DNA of 52,311 nucleotides from Acutalibacteraceae bacterium (GTDB lineage: Bacteria; Bacillota; Clostridia; Oscillospirales; Acutalibacteraceae). The notes under the pieces are model-generated. The model searched no databases, was not told the DNA's origin, and saw nothing but the letters and a program-made list of their open reading frames with translations. The translations under genes were made by a program, and so were the position numbers. Shown piece by piece: positions 7,427 to 39,453 of this stretch. Location: assembly GCA_045601465.1 (NCBI GenBank), contig JAZRZU010000071.1, positions 1 through 52,311 of the forward strand, in the 5' to 3' direction. Each line of letters begins with the position of its first letter. Position 1 is the first letter of the stretch.

Positions 7427-8745
7427 ATGCGTTCACCCACCAAATCCCAATCCATATAATCGGTGATCTGTACCTGTACCAGATCACCGGGCACAACACG
7501 CTCACGTGTCGTAAAAAACACTTTTCCGTCGATATCCGGCGCATCACCGTAGGTGCGTCCAAACCAACATTCCGCATAGCGGTCAAACGATTCCACCAAC
7601 ACCTCGACGGTTTTCCCGATCTGCTGTTCCTGGTAGTCCTGCATGATGCGGTTTTGGAGTTCCATGACAATATCCTGCCGCTTTGCCCGTACCTTTTCCG
7701 GGACCATTGGTGTCATGGTCGCCGCTACCGTTCCCTCTTCTGCCGAGAACGCAAAACAACCAAGCCGTTCGAACCGCACCTCTTTAATAAATTCACACAG
7801 CTGTTCAAAATCCGCTTCGCTCTCAGTAGGGAATCCCGTCATAACGGTGGTACGTAAAACGATTCCCGGCACACGCTGACGAATGTGGGCAATCAAAGCG
7901 GTCAACGATTCCCGATCACCGGGACGGTTCATCGCTTTAAGCACCCGACCCGAAACGTGCTGGATCGGCATATCCAAGTACTTGGCTACCTTCTCTTGCC
8001 GTGCCATCACGTCCAGCAATTCCTCGGTGATGTGTTCGGGATAACAATATAATAACCGAATCCAATGCAATCCGTCAATCTCACACAAACGGTCAAGCAA
8101 CGTCGGCAGCTTGGACACGCCATCGAGTTCTGCACCGTACGAGGTGGGGTCTTGCGCTACCACCACCAACTGCTTGGCGCCGTTTTCCACCAAGGTACGT
8201 GCCTCTTTCAAAACCGCCTCCATATCCCGACTGCGCAATCCGCCCCGAATTTTGGGAATGGCACAATAGGTACAACAATTATTGCACCCATCGCCGATAC
8301 GCAGATACGCAAAAAAGTCGGGCGTCGTTAACAAGCGGTCACCCTCCAACGACCAACAGGACAGATCGGGGAACCGTTTAACGGTATCATCCGCCAACAC
8401 CTGTTGCACGACCTCGACAATATCACCGTTTGCGCCGAGGCCCAGTACCGCATCGCACTCCGGCAGCTCTTGGCACAGTTCCTCTTGATACCGCTGCGCT
8501 AAACAACCGGTCACGATGATTTTTTGAATCTGCCCCTCTTTTTTCAGTTGAGCAAACTCCAATATATTTTCAATCGCTTCACGCTTGGCATCCTCTATGA
8601 AGCCGCAGGTATTCACAATTACCACATCTGCCAGACCACTTTCGGACGTAAGCTCAAACCCGGCATCCCGCAACTTTGCCAGCATCAATTCGGCATCCAT
8701 TTGATTTTTCGGACACCCCAATGATACCATTCCTACTTTACTCAA
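7423..8745 (-). CDS. rimO: Ribosomal protein S12 methylthiotransferase RimO
   Basis: MTTase N-terminus VSLGCPKNQMDAE, radical-SAM CNNCCTYC and a C-terminal TRAM domain. The ORF track start at 8835 would overlap recX. TTG at 8745 (after GGAGG) or ATG at 8730 is more likely. Confidence 0.85.
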   Translation of the reverse strand: MSKVGMVSLGCPKNQMDAELMLAKLRDAGFELTSESGLADVVIVNTCGFIEDAKREAIENILEFAQLKKEGQIQKIIVTGCLAQRYQEELCQELPECDAVLGLGANGDIVEVVQQVLADDTVKRFPDLSCWSLEGDRLLTTPDFFAYLRIGDGCNNCCTYCAIPKIRGGLRSRDMEAVLKEARTLVENGAKQLVVVAQDPTSYGAELDGVSKLPTLLDRLCEIDGLHWIRLLYCYPEHITEELLDVMARQEKVAKYLDMPIQHVSGRVLKAMNRPGDRESLTALIAHIRQRVPGIVLRTTVMTGFPTESEADFEQLCEFIKEVRFERLGCFAFSAEEGTVAATMTPMVPEKVRAKRQDIVMELQNRIMQDYQEQQIGKTVEVLVESFDRYAECWFGRTYGDAPDIDGKVFFTTRERVVPGDLVQVQITDYMDWDLVGERI

Positions 8746-9373
8746 AATCCGTTTCCTCCATCCACCGACGCATGGCACGGCGGATATCCTCGCCGGTAAA
8801 CCCATATCGTGCCATCGCCGCAGCGATTCGGTCAAATTCTTTTGATTCCTTCGGAACAGTATACCGCTTTTTCCTCAAAAATTCAAGTGCTAACTTACCA
8901 TCATCGGCGCAAACATCCCGAACCGCCTGCTCAGCGATGTCACGGTCTATCCCTTTTTGCAGTAACGCTTGCACGACCCTCCGTTTCGGATAAAGGCGTG
9001 TATACGTATATTGCTCTGCCAAACGAGCCGCATAGGCAGCATCGTTAATGTACCCGCACGCTTGCATTTTGGCGGCGGTTTCGGCTGCCAGTTCACGTTT
9101 TTCGGGTTGATACCGTCCTTTTTCACGGCAAAGTTTCTGCTCCAATTCCCGACGGGAAAGATCCCGCTTAGACAACAAATACACCGCCCTGCTGGTCGCA
9201 CGGCGGTGATCGGAAGCGGTTATCAACGCTTCCAGCTGCTCATCCGACAAGGAGGAGTCCTGCCCGTAAGGGGACTCCTCCCACGTCGTCTTATCGATCA
9301 ACACTTTGTTCCCCGTATCCAAGGTCAACTGCATATAGTGCCCTCGGGCGGGACGCACACCCACGATGATCAT
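8738..9373 (-). CDS. recX: RecX family regulator
   Basis: 211 aa helical-repeat protein immediately downstream of recA, with a 4 nt overlap. Position and size are typical of recX. Confidence 0.7.
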
Positions 9374-11293: not shown

Positions 11294-11742
11294 AACGGCT
11301 TCGCCATCCGTTCTTTCACCATTATGTATTTTTCCATCGTCACAACAGTACCCCGTCCCGGTTTGGAGGATACCCGCAATTTATCGGTAAAGCTTTCCAT
11401 CACCGAAAAGCCCAGTCCCGACCGATCATCCCCACCGGTGGTAAACAACGGCTCCATCGCCTGCTCAACGTCGGGGATACCGCACCCTTTATCTCGAATC
11501 TTTATCACGGTGCGCCCATCGGCATACAATTTCATCTGAATGGTAATTGTGCCGATCGTGTCGCCGTAGGCGTGCACGATACAGTTGGTCACCGCTTCGG
11601 ATACCGCCGTGCGCAGATCCGCCAGCTCATCCACCGCCGGATCTAATTGCGACAAAAAAGATGCCACCGCCGATCGTGCAAACCCCTCGTTTGCCGACCG
11701 ACTGGGAAAGGTAATTTTCATCTCGTTCATTGGTTTTCTCAT
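11290..11742 (-). CDS. spoIIAB: Anti-sigma F factor (serine kinase) SpoIIAB
   Basis: HATPase-type N and G boxes (EAVTNCIVHAY, DKGCGI, GLGFSV). Overlaps the spoIIAA stop. Confidence 0.9.
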   Translation of the reverse strand: MRKPMNEMKITFPSRSANEGFARSAVASFLSQLDPAVDELADLRTAVSEAVTNCIVHAYGDTIGTITIQMKLYADGRTVIKIRDKGCGIPDVEQAMEPLFTTGGDDRSGLGFSVMESFTDKLRVSSKPGRGTVVTMEKYIMVKERMAKPL

Positions 11743-34799: not shown

Positions 34800-34847
34800 A
34801 AAAAGAGCAGACCGTTGGGGCACCCTCCGTAAGGAAGGTGCCCCAAC
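34800..34847. repeat. Left copy of an inverted repeat pair bracketing the island (hairpin element)
   Basis: AAAAAGAGCAGACC + GTTGGGGCACC-CTCCGTAAGGAAG-GTGCCCCAAC. The partner lies at 37832-37877 in inverted orientation. Confidence 0.7.
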
Positions 34848-35083
34848 GGGTGTCTCTTGTATCAAAATTAAATAATTGATTTGGGTAAGCGGTGTAGTTA
34901 TTGGCTATGCCGTTCTTTGTTACACACCTTTTCAAAGTGTGTAACCCACTATGACACTTTCACGCTGTACAAAGATGTCAGTGGGTTCAAAAATGCAACT
35001 TGTATAAAATATTATCCATAGTCGCATTTTGAAATATCCCATTATTAACATTGCGCTATACTTTGCTAAGACCTGATACTCGA

Positions 35084-35121
35084 CGAAAAGAAAACACGGC
35101 AGAGAACAAACCCCTGCCGTG
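35084..35121 (-). terminator. Terminator of the island operon
   Basis: On the minus strand: CACGGCAG...CTGCCGTG followed by TTTTCTTTTCG. Confidence 0.65.
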
Positions 35122-35128
35122 AAACAAA

Positions 35129-35503
35129 TTACACCTTTTCGGTTTTTACATTTACACCTTGTTTGATTGCTTCTTCAAGGAAAGAAACCATAAGGTTAAA
35201 TACTTCGGTTGTTTCTTCAAACTCAAAGGTCTTTTCCTTGTAGAGCATCAAATCTTCAAGGTATTCGGAAGGATCAATTTCAGTAATACCGCCGTCCTCC
35301 GAAAAAACGCCCTCAAACTGATGATAGTCACGTGTAAAACCTTTCCACCCGTTTCCGTCAAGCGTAGGTGTATCGTAAATATCATCAAAGTAGCCTTCCC
35401 AAATGTGAATGGCTTGGTCGGCTTCGATACAAAGAACAATTTTACCCTCGTCCTCGTACCCCTCGTAGTAGGTGTAATTATTTTTTAGGTTTCCAATGTC
35501 CAT
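35129..35503 (-). CDS. Acidic 124 aa protein, immunity-protein-like
   Basis: Rich in D/E/Y. Its start lies 26 nt inside the preceding ORF. It is the last gene of the operon. No family recognised. Confidence 0.5.
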   Translation of the reverse strand: MDIGNLKNNYTYYEGYEDEGKIVLCIEADQAIHIWEGYFDDIYDTPTLDGNGWKGFTRDYHQFEGVFSEDGGITEIDPSEYLEDLMLYKEKTFEFEETTEVFNLMVSFLEEAIKQGVNVKTEKV

Positions 35504-35918
35504 TATCTAACATCTCCTTTTGTTCTTTTGTCGCAGTTCCGTTTTTCCTTGCACGGATAGCCGCCTGCCACTCCTTTTTTGATACCCACTTGTTTTTGCC
35601 AACAAGTATCTCGTGCTTGGCAGGACGTGCATTTTTACCGTAACCAATACCTGCTTTATCACGCTGAACAACCCAACTATCGCCTTGCTCTTTCGGAGCG
35701 TTAGGGGTGCGGGTGTGCCAACGGCTTGTATAAGAATAATCACCCTTTTCCCAAGTATATTTAACTTGGTCGTATCCGTTTTTCTGTTCTTCTTTTACTG
35801 TGGCAGAGGATGGAATTTTAATAGGTGAACTCTTGGGCAGAGTATTTTCAATGTAATCTTTGCGGTTTTCGCCTGCACCGTGAGTGCCGCCAAAACCACC
35901 GTGAAAGCCTGCACCCAT
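35478..35918 (-). CDS. Basic 146 aa protein with a Gly-rich N-terminus, toxin-domain-like
   Basis: MGAGFHGGFGGTHGAGE... followed by a K/R/W-rich domain (SRWHTRTPNAP..AKHEILVGKNKW..DNGHWKPKK). Its ATG overlaps the DUF4417 stop (TAATG). Confidence 0.45.
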   Translation of the reverse strand: MGAGFHGGFGGTHGAGENRKDYIENTLPKSSPIKIPSSATVKEEQKNGYDQVKYTWEKGDYSYTSRWHTRTPNAPKEQGDSWVVQRDKAGIGYGKNARPAKHEILVGKNKWVSKKEWQAAIRARKNGTATKEQKEMLDNGHWKPKK

Positions 35919-36583
35919 TAAGCACTCACCGCCTTTCGACTTTGCATAAAGTCGCTGTCGAATTGCAGTATTTCAATCCCCATTTCTTTATACTGTGCGA
36001 AAACTTCGTCCGGTGTAGCACCATATACAACAATGGTTTTTGGCTCTAATGTGTTAACTACATATTTTAAGCCTTTTATAAAATACTTGCGTTCGCTCAG
36101 TAGTCTTATGCAACCGTGAGAGCCTACTGCGATTACCCCGTGCTTGTTTATACCCGCACAAGATAATTCAAATGTACGATCATCGCCAAAGCGTATATTT
36201 GGGATGACGGGTATTCCGTTTTCTTGCAACCAATGACCGATTGCACGGCTACGATAAATATTCCATTGTTGCATTACCAACGGCATATCTCGATAGACAC
36301 TAAAATCGGGAGATATAACCCCTTTGAATTTCTTTAGGATAGGGAGATAGGTGTTAGGTCTATTCCATAATCTTTCAAAAGCGGTATCGTCCTCGTAAAA
36401 ATGCACCCAAGCATCATATTCGGTACTGTGTACCGCCTTTGAAAACGCAATGAGCTTGTTGGGCTTTCGCATTTCTGTTTTTAAGCACGGGATTTCAAGT
36501 GGACTATCGTAGGTTGCATTTTTTACTAAAAATGCGTGAAAAACATCTTTGCACCCACTTCGAGTGCCATTTTTTCTTGACAT
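35918..36583 (-). CDS. DUF4417-like protein
   Basis: 221 aa. Contains ISPDFSVYRDMPLVMQQWNIYRSRAIGHWLQENGIPVIPNIRFG, recalled as the DUF4417 core. The RBS is GAGGAGGGCATAATAT. Confidence 0.6.
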   Translation of the reverse strand: MSRKNGTRSGCKDVFHAFLVKNATYDSPLEIPCLKTEMRKPNKLIAFSKAVHSTEYDAWVHFYEDDTAFERLWNRPNTYLPILKKFKGVISPDFSVYRDMPLVMQQWNIYRSRAIGHWLQENGIPVIPNIRFGDDRTFELSCAGINKHGVIAVGSHGCIRLLSERKYFIKGLKYVVNTLEPKTIVVYGATPDEVFAQYKEMGIEILQFDSDFMQSRKAVSA

Positions 36584-36586
36584 ATA

Positions 36587-36787
36587 TTATGCCCTCCTCA
36601 TCTGTTCTTTGCAGAAAATCGCAAATTTTTTTCGTAAAAACATCAATAGTTCTTGCAATTTTTCTTCAGATGTGGCATAATACTTGTAGCAGAATATCGG
36701 ATGCTCGCATCCAAAGAGAACGCACTTTGTAAATTGTTGCCGCAATTTACTGAGTGCTTTTTCTATTTGTACGACCTTTACAATCAT
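36587..36787 (-). CDS. Hypothetical 66 aa protein
   Basis: RBS AAAGGACGGTGATGTTAT, tightly packed between ImmA and DUF4417. Cys-containing (CVLFGCEHPIFC). Confidence 0.45.
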   Translation of the reverse strand: MIVKVVQIEKALSKLRQQFTKCVLFGCEHPIFCYKYYATSEEKLQELLMFLRKKFAIFCKEQMRRA

Positions 36788-36819
36788 ATAACATCACCGT
36801 CCTTTCTCTTAATTTTCTA

Positions 36820-37368
36820 TTACACAGCTTCTTTGAAAAGCTGGAGTAATCGTATTTCGTAATTGGTATAATCCTTATTGCCGTAAGTCAACCATTTACG
36901 ATAGTACGAGAAGGCGTAGCCTGCTGCTTCAAGGCTGATGTCAAAATGCTCGTAAACCTCGTAGGCATCCTTTAACTCTAATTTGTGAATGAGGACGGGC
37001 GGTGCGAGAGCATACTTTGCAAAAAACTTCGCTTCGGCTTCTGCCAATTCGCTTTCTTCCGTGTGATCCAACACTATATGTCCACACTCGTGGGTGAGAG
37101 TGTTGTTGACACGTCCGTAGCCTTTTGCATCGTTATAAAAAATGTACCACACGCCATCTTTCTTGATAGTAAATCCATCCTCGCTTCTTTCCATCATAAG
37201 CTGACGTGTTTCTTCGGATTTTGAGGAATAAGGGACTACCACCGCACCGAGTTTTGTAGCCATTTCAAAGGCACTTATCGGAATACATCGGATGTTAAGT
37301 TCCTCGAAAGTGTTGACGACAATCTCCTTAATTTCCTCACAACGCTTATCAGATAATCTAAATGCCAA
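36820..37368 (-). CDS. ImmA/IrrE family metallopeptidase
   Basis: HEXXH as THECGHIVLDH. Its size and its position right after an XRE gene are typical of the family. Confidence 0.85.
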   Translation of the reverse strand: MAFRLSDKRCEEIKEIVVNTFEELNIRCIPISAFEMATKLGAVVVPYSSKSEETRQLMMERSEDGFTIKKDGVWYIFYNDAKGYGRVNNTLTHECGHIVLDHTEESELAEAEAKFFAKYALAPPVLIHKLELKDAYEVYEHFDISLEAAGYAFSYYRKWLTYGNKDYTNYEIRLLQLFKEAV

Positions 37369-37370
37369 TA

Positions 37371-37682
37371 TTAGTCCTCCCCGAACAAAGCAGAAATAAG
37401 TGCTCGTTTTTGTTTTTCCGACATTGTTGCGGAGTTTCTTGCCAACAAACGCTCTACCTTCGGAAAATCAAAATCATCAGACTCTATACCGAGCAGATAA
37501 TCAGAAGTGGTATGCAGGGCGGTAGCGATGTTTGCAAGCATATCCGCTTTTGGCTCTCTGTCGCCGGAAACGTAACGAGAGAGCGTGGCTTCAGTAGTGT
37601 TAATTCTATCAGCAAGCTCCTTTTGTGTTATACCTTGTTTTTGTAATAGGTTTAATAACCTCTGTCCAAATGCTTTACTCAT
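37371..37682 (-). CDS. XRE family HTH transcriptional regulator
   Basis: ITQKELADRINTTEATLSRYVSGDREP helix-turn-helix. The RBS is AAGGAGGAAATACT. Confidence 0.9.
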   Translation of the reverse strand: MSKAFGQRLLNLLQKQGITQKELADRINTTEATLSRYVSGDREPKADMLANIATALHTTSDYLLGIESDDFDFPKVERLLARNSATMSEKQKRALISALFGED

Positions 37683-37730
37683 AGTATTTCCTCCTTATTT
37701 GCAGAGTAACCTCTATTCAGACTTACCAAA

Positions 37731-37759
37731 AGTATAATACATCTTACCGAAAATGTCAA
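37731..37759 (-). promoter_or_regulatory. Consensus sigma-A promoter of the island operon
   Basis: On the minus strand: TTGACA (37754-37759), 17 nt, then TATACT (37731-37736). GGTAAG direct repeats flank the -10 and may be an operator. Confidence 0.65.
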
Positions 37760-37831
37760 GTCTTTTTCATAATAAACACTATATTTTGTTTTGAATTTGA
37801 AGGACAGACACAAAATAAGACGAAAATAATA

Positions 37832-37877
37832 GGGAGACAACTTCCTTACGGAGTGTCTCCCTTGGTCTGCTCTTTTT
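37832..37877. repeat. Right copy of the inverted repeat pair; it also serves as the ribF terminator
   Basis: The reverse complement reads AAAAAGAGCAGACC + AAGGGAGACA-CTCCGTAAGGAAG-TTGTCTCCC followed by TATTATTTTCG. It overlaps the ribF stop codon. Confidence 0.7.
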
Positions 37878-39453
37878 ATAATTTTTCCAAAATATCCGCT
37901 AACCGCTTGATTTCACACACACCATCGGGATACTCGTCCAAATTTCGTGTGTTCAAATAAACAGCCCGCATACCGGCATCCAATGCCCCTTGTATATCAT
38001 TCACGGGATGGTCGCCGACAAATACACAATCCTGCGGTGCCACACACAACCTTTCTGCCAACCGTCGGAAGATCTCCGGATTCGGCTTGCCCACACCCTC
38101 GTCTGCGGATACAGCGACCCCGTCAAGATACGGCCGAATACCCGCCTTGTCAAGTTTTCGGTTTTGTAACAACGTGTGGCCGTTGGTAATCAGGCCCAAC
38201 CGATATCCCCGCCGTCTGAGCGTTTTTAACACCTGCTCGGTTTCATCGTACAACTGCGTACATAGCGGAAAAATCCGTAAATATTCTTCATACAACGCAC
38301 GACCCGTCACACCGTTTTCCGACGGAATAGCAGCGGCAAACTCCTCAAAAAATGCGTCATAATCCACGTATCCGCCGTTATTCTTAACCAACAAATCCTG
38401 CGCCATTTCTTGCCGTTTTGCCTCGTCAGCCTGCGGAAAATGGCGTTCTATCAACTGTTCCATCGCCGCTTTAAAAGCCATCGTGCGGTCTTGTAACGTA
38501 TCGTCAAAATCAAACAATACCGCTTGTGTTCCGTCACCGCAAAGCACTATATTTGCCTGCTTTGCGTCCTGTGCGATTTGGGCTTTTAATGCCTCAACCG
38601 TCGCAAATTGCCGTTCCTCTCGTAAAAAGCGAACCAGTAAAACCTGTACCGTCTGTCCGTACAAATCACCGTCAAAATCTTGAATCCACGTTTCCGCTTG
38701 CGGCAATTTTACACCACCCACCGTCGGATGTATGCCGATATTGGTCACCGCACGGTATTGCTTTTTACCCAGCACCACGAGCGACGCATACACCCCGTAA
38801 CGGGGAACGGCATAAGCCGTGTCAAATACCTGATTGATGGTGGGGGTTCCCCATTGTCGGCCCCGTTTTGCGCCGCTTTGCACGGGCAACTCTACCGAAA
38901 ACGGCCGTCCCAATAAGCGAGCCGCTTTGGTCATATCCCCCGCTGCGATCGCCTGCCGCACATTGGTGCTGCTCACCGCTTCCCCCTCGCACTGCACCAT
39001 GTCCTCCACGACCACACGAATGTCGTATTGAGCACAAAGCTGCCGCAACGTGTCAACGTTTCCGGCGCCATTCTTACCAAACCGATAATTGTGCCCGCAA
39101 CACACCACACCGGTGTTGAGCGTATCCTTTAAAATCGTCTTGACAAACGTAGCCGGCGACAAATCGCGTATAGCGGCAAACGGCAGGTCGATCCATTCGT
39201 CTACCCCCAGCGTATCCAACAACTGATCTTCCCGTTTTGGGGTCAGTAATCGCCCCGTTTCGCCTTTCGGCACACCGGTTATGGACAGTACCGTTGCCGT
39301 CAACAAGCGACCATCGGTATCCTCTGCCCCGCACGCATTCGCCATTACCAGACGATGGCCGATATGCAGTCCGTCGAATACGCCCAGCGCAACCGCCCGC
39401 CGTACCGTCGGCAATACGTGCCGCTTATCGAGTGTATACCGCATAACCGCCAT
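37876..39453 (-). CDS. ribF: Bifunctional riboflavin kinase/FAD synthetase fused to a C-terminal HAD-family phosphatase domain
   Basis: The FAD synthetase N-terminus (GVFDGLHIGH) and riboflavin kinase domain cover roughly aa 1-305. HAD motifs follow: DFDDTL, ITNG, GKPNP and GDHPVNDI. The likely start is the ATG at 39453. Confidence 0.85.
   Translation of the reverse strand: MAVMRYTLDKRHVLPTVRRAVALGVFDGLHIGHRLVMANACGAEDTDGRLLTATVLSITGVPKGETGRLLTPKREDQLLDTLGVDEWIDLPFAAIRDLSPATFVKTILKDTLNTGVVCCGHNYRFGKNGAGNVDTLRQLCAQYDIRVVVEDMVQCEGEAVSSTNVRQAIAAGDMTKAARLLGRPFSVELPVQSGAKRGRQWGTPTINQVFDTAYAVPRYGVYASLVVLGKKQYRAVTNIGIHPTVGGVKLPQAETWIQDFDGDLYGQTVQVLLVRFLREERQFATVEALKAQIAQDAKQANIVLCGDGTQAVLFDFDDTLQDRTMAFKAAMEQLIERHFPQADEAKRQEMAQDLLVKNNGGYVDYDAFFEEFAAAIPSENGVTGRALYEEYLRIFPLCTQLYDETEQVLKTLRRRGYRLGLITNGHTLLQNRKLDKAGIRPYLDGVAVSADEGVGKPNPEIFRRLAERLCVAPQDCVFVGDHPVNDIQGALDAGMRAVYLNTRNLDEYPDGVCEIKRLADILEKL

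Follow-up and report, generated by a model that had tools for sequence, protein, structure and literature searches.

Organisation of the island between yfcE and ribF

The window analysed in this study comprises 52,311 nt of the genome of an Acutalibacteraceae bacterium (GCA_045601465.1, contig JAZRZU010000071.1, positions 1–52,311 of the forward strand), and the feature of interest is an AT-rich island which carries a gene for a DUF4417 protein together with genes for a putative toxin and its immunity protein. The island lies between a gene for a Metallophos_2 phosphoesterase (yfcE-like) and one for a RibF-HAD fusion protein, as assigned by Pfam, and its GC content of 0.36–0.455 over approximately 34.8–37.9 kb, as against 0.48–0.57 in the flanks, bears out the compositional shift in the yfcE-ribF interval that was noted in a first-pass annotation of this DNA. 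The same annotation described six tightly packed minus-strand open reading frames (ORFs), and their coordinates, gaps and overlaps were found to be exactly as claimed, including a TAATG junction at 35918 and a 26-nt overlap at 35478–35503. The promoter that had been proposed for them was recovered in a consensus scan on the minus strand, with a −35 box TTGACA (37759–37754), a −10 box TATACT (37736–37731), a 17-nt spacer and agreement at 11 of 12 consensus positions, and the closing hairpin with its T-run was located at 35121–35095 (an intrinsic operon terminator that is kept in L001; other loci and contigs are given L numbers and proteins P numbers).

The first gene of the operon (all genes being on the minus strand) encodes an XRE-family helix-turn-helix (HTH) repressor of 103 aa (37371–37682; HTH_3, 9.6e-14; PADLOC capH, 1.8e-11) with a strong third-codon-position bias, and is followed by that of a 182-aa ImmA/IrrE-type M78 zinc metallopeptidase (36820–37368), which has a TTG start, a HECGH motif and third-codon-position bias, and which matches Peptidase_M78 (PF06114, 2.1e-6), PADLOC capP (5.2e-8) and the phrog_87 metallo-protease family. 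A non-coding structured leader of 236 nt (36584–36819) sits between ImmA and the gene for the 221-aa DUF4417 protein (35918–36583; PF14386, 3.2e-71), the domain calls for XRE, ImmA/IrrE and DUF4417 in the first-pass annotation being upheld by these Pfam matches. The last two genes encode a basic protein of 146 aa (35478–35918, pI 9.8) and an acidic protein of 124 aa (35129–35503, pI 4.1), as had been described, and neither of these has a Pfam match. Judged from domain and codon-position comparisons, the cassette is thus composed of five genes (XRE, ImmA, DUF4417, 146 aa and 124 aa) and a structured leader.

Of the gene order originally proposed, only the third member, a 66-aa protein encoded at 36587–36787, was not sustained. 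When the island was aligned with ten homologous copies and mismatches were counted per codon position, most substitutions in the XRE, ImmA, DUF4417 and 146-aa genes were at third positions, and all five genes displayed a clear third-position excess (for example 12, 7 and 50 mismatches at positions 1 to 3 of DUF4417), which was weakest in the fast-evolving 124-aa gene. The counts for the 66-aa ORF were flat (6, 3 and 4; 10, 17 and 14; 20, 20 and 19), and this ORF is moreover cut short in close relatives and overlies a covarying structure, which together argue that it is not coding. The predicted fold of the leader consists of a 15-bp hairpin 1 (~36715–36764) and helices P2/P3 (~36665–36715); among 21 sequences and 27 pairs, 88.8% of cells were paired and compensatory (both-side) changes were seen in 16 of the 27 pairs, while pairing was 28–44% in a control in which the partners were slid by 1–3 columns. 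Frequent G-U pairs favour an RNA of the sense strand, and reading of the sequence shows complementarity between a conserved ATTATGCC box and the stretch GGCATAAT that separates the ribosome-binding site from the DUF4417 start codon. This leader is found in front of DUF4417 even where the upstream regulators differ widely, and Rfam holds no family for it or for the end hairpins of the island described below. We therefore take the leader to be a cis-regulatory element of the DUF4417 module, which may act as an attenuator or as a translational switch.

A polymorphic toxin/immunity pair follows DUF4417

To compare the genes that accompany DUF4417, one genome per species was scanned, which gave 241 relatives, and 80 loci were compared (79 unique cassettes, 76 unique downstream proteins and, for upstream genes, 75 non-redundant loci after de-duplication). 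Nearly all of the hosts are Clostridia, chiefly Oscillospiraceae, Acutalibacteraceae, Lachnospiraceae and Ruminococcus; Allobaculum and Phascolarctobacterium are among the few remaining hosts. The DUF4417 stop codon and the next start codon overlap by 1 nt in 71 of the 79 cassettes (TAATG in 50, TGATG in 17 and TAGTG in 4); the gene after DUF4417 encodes 109–228 aa and is itself followed by a tightly coupled gene for 59–189 aa. A common start, MGAGFHGGFGxTxG, is present in 72 of the 76 unique proteins encoded directly downstream of DUF4417, and in the window this constant tag reads MGAGFHGGFGGTHG (35877–35918, minus strand, the TAATG overlapping the DUF4417 stop at 35918). Beyond these 14 residues the N-terminal part of the 146-aa protein has neither a hydrophobic signal nor a Pfam domain.

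Past the tag, the downstream proteins fall into 14 unrelated domain groups, designated T0 to T13, and 12 of these groups pair with a single family of second gene, the exceptions being T3 (two families) and T8, which shares the immunity family I0 with T0. The first proteins are basic and the second acidic (median pI 9.8 and 4.25, respectively). Several groups carry recognisable domains: T10 matches Ntox50 (1.2e-27; no Pfam match for its immunity protein), T12 is an LHH HNH nuclease (1.2e-30) whose partner is a SUKH_5 protein (2.9e-29), and T0 has DUF6883 and is paired with DUF4926 (I0). T2 matches PBECR1 at 1e-5, just under the cutoff, and its immunity protein has no Pfam match, while weak matches were obtained for T7 (CdiA_C), T9 (Prok-JAB), T8 (SprT-like/HExxH) and T3 (Peptidase_C80), with weak sub-threshold or no Pfam matches for their immunity proteins.

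The window's 146-aa protein consists of the tag and the C-terminal domain T1, and its 124-aa partner is I1; this pair is the second commonest in the sample (22 loci). I1 is the downstream partner in all 21 readable T1 loci, the contig ending first in the 22nd, and it diverges fast, with 46–57% identity where the toxin is 76–93% identical. A T1 profile was compared with 1.84 billion representative proteins and gave 361 members, in many of which the domain forms the final 115–130 residues of proteins of 400–2478 aa. Of the members examined more closely, two (P0392 and P0493; lengths 1650 and 2478 aa) carry RHS repeats, one with SpvB/TcdB domains, and another, P0407, is weakly LXG-like, below the Pfam cutoff. 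Some T1 homologs of the 146-aa protein (P0204, P0207, P0212, P0225 and P0240) have an insert of ~70 residues between tag and T1 (LDALSN..IPGLDTFTNLASIPVDLARGDF..), for which Pfam gave no match and which resembles the pre-toxin linker domains of polymorphic toxins.

Remnants of other pairs were found downstream of intact ones. Behind the T2/I2 pair of L063 come residues 92–146 of a T1 toxin and an intact I1 (8468–8975), and behind the T0/I0 pair of L026 an orphan I1 (8270–8626), retained after replacement of its toxin. These orphan modules are evidence of module displacement; the window itself has no displaced orphan toxin/immunity module. DNA homology between loci with different toxins always crosses DUF4417 and breaks off 30–45 nt into the toxin gene (~35874–35890 in the window), which makes the tag-coding stretch the recombination junction.

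The constant head, the alternative domains with matched immunities, the domains held in common with RHS proteins and the orphan modules together point to a polymorphic toxin system, and with high confidence we assign the anatomy described above to a polymorphic toxin/immunity module on these comparative grounds. The suspicion voiced in the first-pass annotation that the 146- and 124-aa proteins form a toxin/immunity pair is thereby supported, and the co-occurrence of DUF4417 with such a pair, when tabulated over the 80 loci, amounts to a fixed triad of DUF4417, tagged toxin and immunity protein.

Two side observations concern the arrangement of such modules elsewhere. An orphan T1/I1 remnant is also located downstream of a different intact toxin/immunity pair in L045 (2948–3112). 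A contig from an Eubacterium ruminantium-like organism (L012, 1694–8862) carries two DUF4417/toxin/immunity cassettes in tandem, of which one is preceded by genes for an HTH protein and a 278-aa weak-M78 protein, the other by the gene of a 360-aa M78 protein; its neighbours encode a PLD-like protein, a PLD-helicase (DUF3427) and a Fic protein, and type I restriction-modification genes are found in the sibling contig L013.

Predicted structures of T1 and DUF4417

AlphaFold (AF2) models were obtained for the toxin domain and for DUF4417, and the Foldseek comparison gave no fold match for the toxin and, for DUF4417, the weak TIM-barrel-type matches that are weighed below. In the confident T1 model (predicted local distance difference test score, pLDDT, 83) a six-stranded sheet is preceded by one helix at the N-terminal side and followed by two at the C-terminal side, and the model was without a match in the PDB and BFVD. 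Its invariant residues (K46, Y49, Q51, K53, R66-W67-H68 and T71) and the helix-plus-sheet layout of the model hint, at low confidence, at a metal-independent RNase.

The DUF4417 model (pLDDT 81) is built of seven beta-alpha units, and many of the invariant residues of the family are His, Asp, Glu or Arg, suggesting an enzyme; the conserved positions include H61, E64-D66, D93, R98-D99, N129, R131 and H156. A conserved N-terminal peptide, CKDVFHAFLVKN, is predicted to be disordered and might, as a speculation, be an interaction motif. No significant match among solved structures was obtained for any of the three cargo proteins (DUF4417, toxin and immunity protein), either with single sequences or with profiles, and an exact-sequence look-up found no record for the DUF4417 or RibF proteins of the window. 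A nuclease of the R.HinP1I type was considered for DUF4417 and rejected, the matches being sub-threshold and without fold backing. A search of the accessible literature found no paper tying DUF4417 to toxins.

The proposed XRE/M78 switch

In at least 54 of the 75 non-redundant loci the gene immediately before the leader and DUF4417 encodes an M78-type peptidase, and XRE/ImmA is thus a conserved partner of the DUF4417 cargo. These 54 comprise 31 of the window's family, 20 of a 212-aa HEIAH family and three of a 223-aa family that matches M78 at 2e-18, and for the window's family, as well as for one locus sampled from the 212-aa family, an HTH gene was confirmed beside the M78 gene. The promoter is conserved, and two YGGTAAG direct repeats, one in the spacer (37749–37743) and one just past the −10 box (37728–37722; both on the minus strand, within the promoter region 37722–37759), are kept in 10 loci and are presumed to be XRE operators. 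Loci with a divergent XRE carry TGGCAAG in place of YGGTAAG, which fits operator and repressor changing together. The XRE/ImmA pair is co-directional with the cargo and under the same single recognisable promoter. A minority of loci (L070, L079, L085, L092, L095, L041 and L080) have a gene other than XRE/ImmA upstream of DUF4417, encoding either a Fic-domain protein with a winged HTH (Fic, 4.7e-21) or an AAA_21 (AbiEii-like) ATPase.

It is established for ImmR/ImmA, DdrO/IrrE and CapH/CapP that DNA damage or single-stranded DNA stimulates a protease which cleaves the repressor (bioRxiv 10.1101/2022.04.27.489752). The present cassette resembles these systems in that an HTH repressor and an HExxH M78 peptidase are encoded upstream of a toxic cargo operon; however, its pair is co-directional with and part of that operon, unlike CapH/CapP and in a layout nearer to ImmR/ImmA, and its cargo is a polymorphic toxin module rather than CBASS, DISARM or mobile-element transfer genes. 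Polymorphic toxins would in this way be linked to the XRE/M78 switch, a device already familiar from mobile elements and immune operons.

By analogy, the following course of events may be proposed. XRE, bound at the two YGGTAAG repeats that straddle the −10 box, would keep expression of the operon low until a stress signal (DNA damage or single-stranded DNA, if the likeness to ImmR/ImmA, DdrO/IrrE and CapH/CapP holds) activates the M78 protease and XRE is cleaved. The transcript would then pass through the leader, which probably tunes read-through or translation, and DUF4417, toxin and immunity protein would be made by coupled translation, as the observed stop/start overlaps imply. DUF4417 is envisaged as the constant partner of the 14-residue Gly-rich tag and might bind, process, activate or release the toxin, whose variable C-terminal domain would be the killing moiety, possibly an RNase, neutralised in the producer cell by the acidic immunity protein.

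The same switch could serve an abortive-infection or anti-phage cassette, as the first-pass annotation had suggested. On this reading phage or DNA damage would cause ImmA to cleave XRE, the toxin would outrun or escape the immunity protein, and the infected cell would die or arrest, with DUF4417 as sensor or activator. The capH and capP models matched by XRE and ImmA represent regulators that accompany many immune operons (bioRxiv 10.1101/2022.04.27.489752), the tandem cassettes of the E. ruminantium-like contig adjoin the PLD-helicase (DUF3427), Fic and type I restriction-modification genes mentioned above, an AbiEii-like ATPase or Fic-wHTH protein stands upstream in other loci, and phage proteins are among the relatives of DUF4417. 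However, the DUF4417, 146-aa and 124-aa proteins have no PADLOC-DB v2 match at E <0.1, in line with the earlier remark that the gene set is not a recognised named system, and toxin and immunity protein are co-translated from one transcript, so that induction alone would not obviously free the toxin. Furthermore, the orphan immunity genes and the domains common to exported RHS toxins (and to one weakly LXG-like protein) argue for toxins that come from outside. A defence function of this kind thus received no direct support, the signatures at hand (RHS-type domains, SUKH and orphan immunities) being those of polymorphic toxin systems, and it is regarded as unlikely.

Relation to known toxin systems and to phage proteins

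Polymorphic toxin systems, on which Zhang et al. (2012) are said to give the general account, classically serve interbacterial antagonism. Colicin and pyocin operons are induced by stress and encode a nuclease-type toxin, disordered and Gly-rich at its N-terminus, together with an acidic immunity protein that binds it tightly. The analogy of the cassette with these operons is functional and there is no homology; the cassette has no lysis gene, its host is a Gram-positive anaerobe and its toxin is of only 146 aa. The role of the module may tentatively be seen as inducible, colicin-like interbacterial antagonism together with kin discrimination. Antagonism is favoured because of the RHS-type toxin domains, the SUKH protein among the immunity partners (that of T12) and the retained orphan immunity genes, whose upkeep is sensible if toxins come from neighbouring cells. 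Questions raised by such a role include the function of the tag, lysis-dependent release, and defensive versus offensive use.

The nearest described design is that of a three-component polymorphic toxin system, such as the S8-PTS of Gram-positive bacteria (Li, Tan and Zhang 2022, PMC9424270). In both cases a conserved accessory protein is encoded beside a toxin with a constant N-terminus and many C-terminal domains (BECR RNases and HNH among them), the toxin has its own immunity gene directly downstream, orphan modules occur, and the domains are common to RHS toxins and a weakly LXG-like protein. The cassette differs in that its accessory protein is DUF4417 and not a subtilase, in that its toxin has no signal peptide or receptor-binding domain but only the 14-residue Gly-rich tag, in the translational coupling of DUF4417 and toxin, in the XRE/M78 switch and structured leader that usually stand in front, and in having no evident secretion route. 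The DUF4417 triad therefore appears to be undescribed. Its accessory protein, its tag, the T1 domain and the I1 immunity family would be new and its regulatory front end and vehicle unusual, and it would represent a new type of polymorphic toxin (short, leaderless and tagged) in gut and rumen Clostridia, in which strain competition is poorly understood.

DUF4417 is also encoded by phages, in proteins that are at most 39% identical to that of the window. In many phages of Mycobacterium (cluster A among them) and of Gordonia it is the first or second gene, and in Streptococcus phages it stands shortly before the gene of the small terminase subunit, frequently as a fusion with a ParB-like domain (bioRxiv 10.1101/2025.10.10.680097; PMC8066415). 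Phages phiST1 (L099, 3408–4459) and MM1 (L100, 2946–4767) each have DUF4417, an overlapping small gene with a toxin-like motif and then the small terminase subunit; in MM1, DUF4417 is fused to the ParB-like domain and ORF29 bears a JAB-like H-x-H-P...S-x-x-D motif. No immunity gene follows the small toxin-like gene in either phage. Only two relatives of DUF4417 were detected in 2.9 million viral contigs (IMG/VR), as against 241 in the species genomes. The triad would offer a first functional context for a domain that is present in hundreds of phages and in at least 241 bacterial species.

The MuF toxins of temperate phages (Jamet et al. 2017, PMC5576092) provide a further comparison, as they likewise combine a phage-related constant module with variable toxin domains in Firmicutes, and as phage DUF4417 belongs to the packaging region, with small effector-like genes behind it. 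Conversely, the constant part of the cassette is a separate protein and not a fused MuF domain, the island type is found outside prophages, and the phage versions of DUF4417 have no obvious immunity gene.

The island as a mobile element within a terminator loop

The island extends from 34814 to 37863 (3,050 bp) and is bounded by inverted hairpin ends. Copies with 92–98% DNA identity were found in at least eight other species (L019, L020, L022, L024, L025, L027, L029 and L090), the cassette proteins being 96–99% identical in at least nine species representatives, and where both ends are available the homology between copies spans from ~37863–37885 at the XRE end to ~34800–34815 at the far end. 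The element starts with AAGGGAGACA-CTCCGTAAGGAAGT-TGTCTCCCT and ends with GTTGGGGCACC-TTCCTTACGGAG-GGTGCCCCAAC, the hairpin loops being mutual reverse complements. In the window, the former hairpin constitutes end B (37831–37863, minus strand), which doubles as the ribF terminator, and end A is GTTGGGGCACC-CTCCGTAAGGAA-GGTGCCCCAAC followed by GGGTGTCTCTTGTATC (34814–34863, plus strand). A non-coding sub-terminal region of ~230 nt (34864–35094, with hairpins at 34888–34914 and 34919–34945) separates end A from the operon terminator and is conserved among the island copies in other species; the possibility that it is a remnant of a recombinase gene was rejected, as blastx gave no match.

Beyond the hairpins the sequence differs from genome to genome. 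Both junctions could be read in five other species, and wherever this was the case the flanks are the complementary A-tract/stem/T-tract arms of a host palindrome, for example ATACGGCATAGCCAC and GTGGCTATGCCGTAT in L022. The arms in the window form a 14-nt inverted repeat of 100% complementarity, with AAAAAGAGCAGACC on the yfcE side (34800–34813) and GGTCTGCTCTTTTT (plus strand) on the ribF side (37864–37877), the latter being perfectly complementary to 34800–34813. In a relative with 65% RibF identity, the synteny of ribF and yfcE is kept and the 60-nt gap between them holds a single terminator, AAAAAGGCAGAGCC-GACG-GGCTCTGCCTTTTTT. As this is the nearest RibF in the collections and no close relative with an empty site was present there, the empty site is deduced from synteny and is not an alignable allele. 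The differing complementary arms and the intact terminator in the relative indicate that the island was inserted in the loop of an ancestral bidirectional ribF/yfcE terminator, so that each of these two host genes now ends at one of the element's own hairpins. The AAAAAGAGCAGACC repeats were also considered as terminal inverted repeats of the element itself, which was rejected because the arms of other copies differ and the relative has an intact terminator.

When metagenomes were scanned for the end hairpins, at least 120 contigs were retrieved (L105–L224), almost none of which contain the genes of the island. This hairpin-ended family comprises elements of 1.2–9.2 kb with the same inverted ends and the loop CTCCGTAAGGAAG, and nearly all members with both ends visible are located between the arms of a host palindrome. 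The larger members encode a large serine recombinase (Resolvase, Recombinase, Zn_ribbon_recom and DUF4368), the gene of which ends 62 nt inside end A, and a MobA/VirD2 relaxase, while related members carry TnpV; recombinase, relaxase and TnpV are the gene set of integrative mobilisable elements of the Tn4451/Tn4453 type (PMC3158075). Smaller, cargo-only members carry, for example, a gene of the aminoglycoside phosphotransferase (APH) family (a 1.2-kb unit; L175 and L196), an AraC-like regulator (L132) or a surface protein (L154 and L178). The outer ~60–110 nt of the island (to ~34925) are 77–91% identical to the ends of the recombinase-bearing elements, and fragments of TnpV or recombinase genes adjoin DUF4417 cassettes in eight other loci, including L021, L023, L026, L033, L041, L060 and L079.

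On the basis of these end and junction sequences, the island is a recombinase-less member of the Tn4451-like hairpin-ended family. Its ends (hairpin plus GGCTYTTGTAWTC) are those of the elements with a TnpX-type recombinase, TnpV and MobA, and its insertion, as with Tn4451/Tn4453, disrupts no gene; it differs from Tn4451 and Tn4453 in lacking recombinase, TnpV and Mob genes and in its cargo. The first-pass annotation was correct that the interval contains no integrase, capsid or conjugation gene, yet 34800–37877 is made up of a mobile element (34814–37863) and two terminator arms, and the view of a stand-alone cassette has to be qualified, as the island possesses the cis-acting ends of Tn4451-like elements within a terminator loop. 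No description of insertion at a terminator apex, or of many recombinase-less cassettes with the same ends, was found in the literature consulted on Tn4451/Tn4453. These hairpin cassettes in terminator loops, some with resistance genes, are by-products of the analysis, as is the candidate cis-regulatory RNA of the leader. Two other classes of element were examined and rejected: an IS200/IS605-type passenger, since the end hairpins are inverted and not direct and the autonomous relatives carry a serine recombinase, and an integron cassette, on account of the inverted hairpins and the lack of an attC-type array.

The well-defined unit also bears on whether the island is what remains of a lysogeny module, namely XRE/ImmA and a phage DUF4417 left behind after deletion of a prophage. 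Phages do often encode DUF4417 (just before the small terminase subunit or, in Mycobacterium cluster A, as gene 1 or 2; PMC8066415), and XRE and ImmA match phage PHROG families. However, an intact 3.05-kb unit with the same defined ends is present in many species, purifying selection acts on all five genes, and the relative has the 60-nt terminator alone between ribF and yfcE, which makes the island a clean 3.05-kb insertion. With the low identity of the phage proteins and their scarcity in viral contigs noted above, such a decayed prophage is effectively excluded.

Carriage on a mobile element might further be taken to mean that the pair is an addiction or stabilisation module, in which toxin and immunity penalise loss of the element, XRE/ImmA is an inherited regulator and DUF4417 is an accessory. 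The cassette is indeed the cargo of a hairpin-ended element, with TnpV or recombinase genes beside cassettes elsewhere, its 96–99% protein identity across species representatives speaks for recent cross-species spread, and Tn4451-like elements are known with toxin-antitoxin cargo (PMC3158075). An addiction module would, however, need neither 14 interchangeable domains behind a constant tag nor a strictly conserved upstream protein of 221 aa, and orphan immunity genes are atypical of such modules. The immunity gene is located downstream and its product is acidic and stable-looking, not a labile autoregulating antitoxin; this position, the separate regulation by XRE/ImmA and DUF4417 as third conserved gene all depart from type II toxin-antitoxin systems. 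Stabilisation of the element is therefore considered improbable as the function of the pair.

Taken as a whole, the island is interpreted, by a modest margin of confidence, as a non-autonomous mobile cassette carrying a switch-controlled DUF4417-toxin-immunity operon, with inducible antagonism as its likeliest role. Several observations weigh against this interpretation. The toxin is devoid of a secretion signal and of a trafficking domain, and neither a lysis nor an export gene accompanies it, which is the chief weakness of the antagonism role. The DUF4417 model gives only weak TIM-barrel-type matches in Foldseek (best E 3e-3, TM-score 0.34–0.43), and the R.HinP1I matches, although recurrent, stay sub-threshold. 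CapH/CapP is usually divergent from its operon (bioRxiv 10.1101/2022.04.27.489752) and the pair described here is co-directional. No large serine recombinase, Mob or TnpV was found in the 52-kb window by tblastn, which speaks against taking present-day mobility for granted. Both junctions fall within a palindrome, which masks the exact 2-bp crossover.

A more far-reaching and rather doubtful proposal is that DUF4417 represents a new way in which Gram-positive gut anaerobes handle polymorphic toxins that have no leader. The 221-aa barrel-like enzyme would recognise the 14-residue tag and activate, process or release whichever toxin domain follows it, expression of the module would be triggered by a protease switch of the DNA-damage type and adjusted by the new leader RNA, and cassettes without a recombinase would home to the loops of transcription terminators. 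The phage DUF4417 genes beside terminase would, under this proposal, be an ancestral immunity-less version that is used against the host.

Two minor observations relate to the ends of the island. A second island lineage (L001–L005, 87.7% identical) has no hairpin ends, and in L001 the island is flanked by a 33-nt direct repeat (8614–8646 and 11657–11689, 3043 nt apart) which corresponds to the 3′ end of a pyruvate phosphate dikinase gene and is attL/attR-like, with no integrase between the two copies. Additionally, the hairpin GGGGCACC-CTCCGTAAGGAA-GGTGCCCC occurs alone in ordinary terminators of L141, L158, L151 and L109, with no adjoining element sequence, and these lone hairpins could be a footprint of the element, a preferred target or a miniature element.

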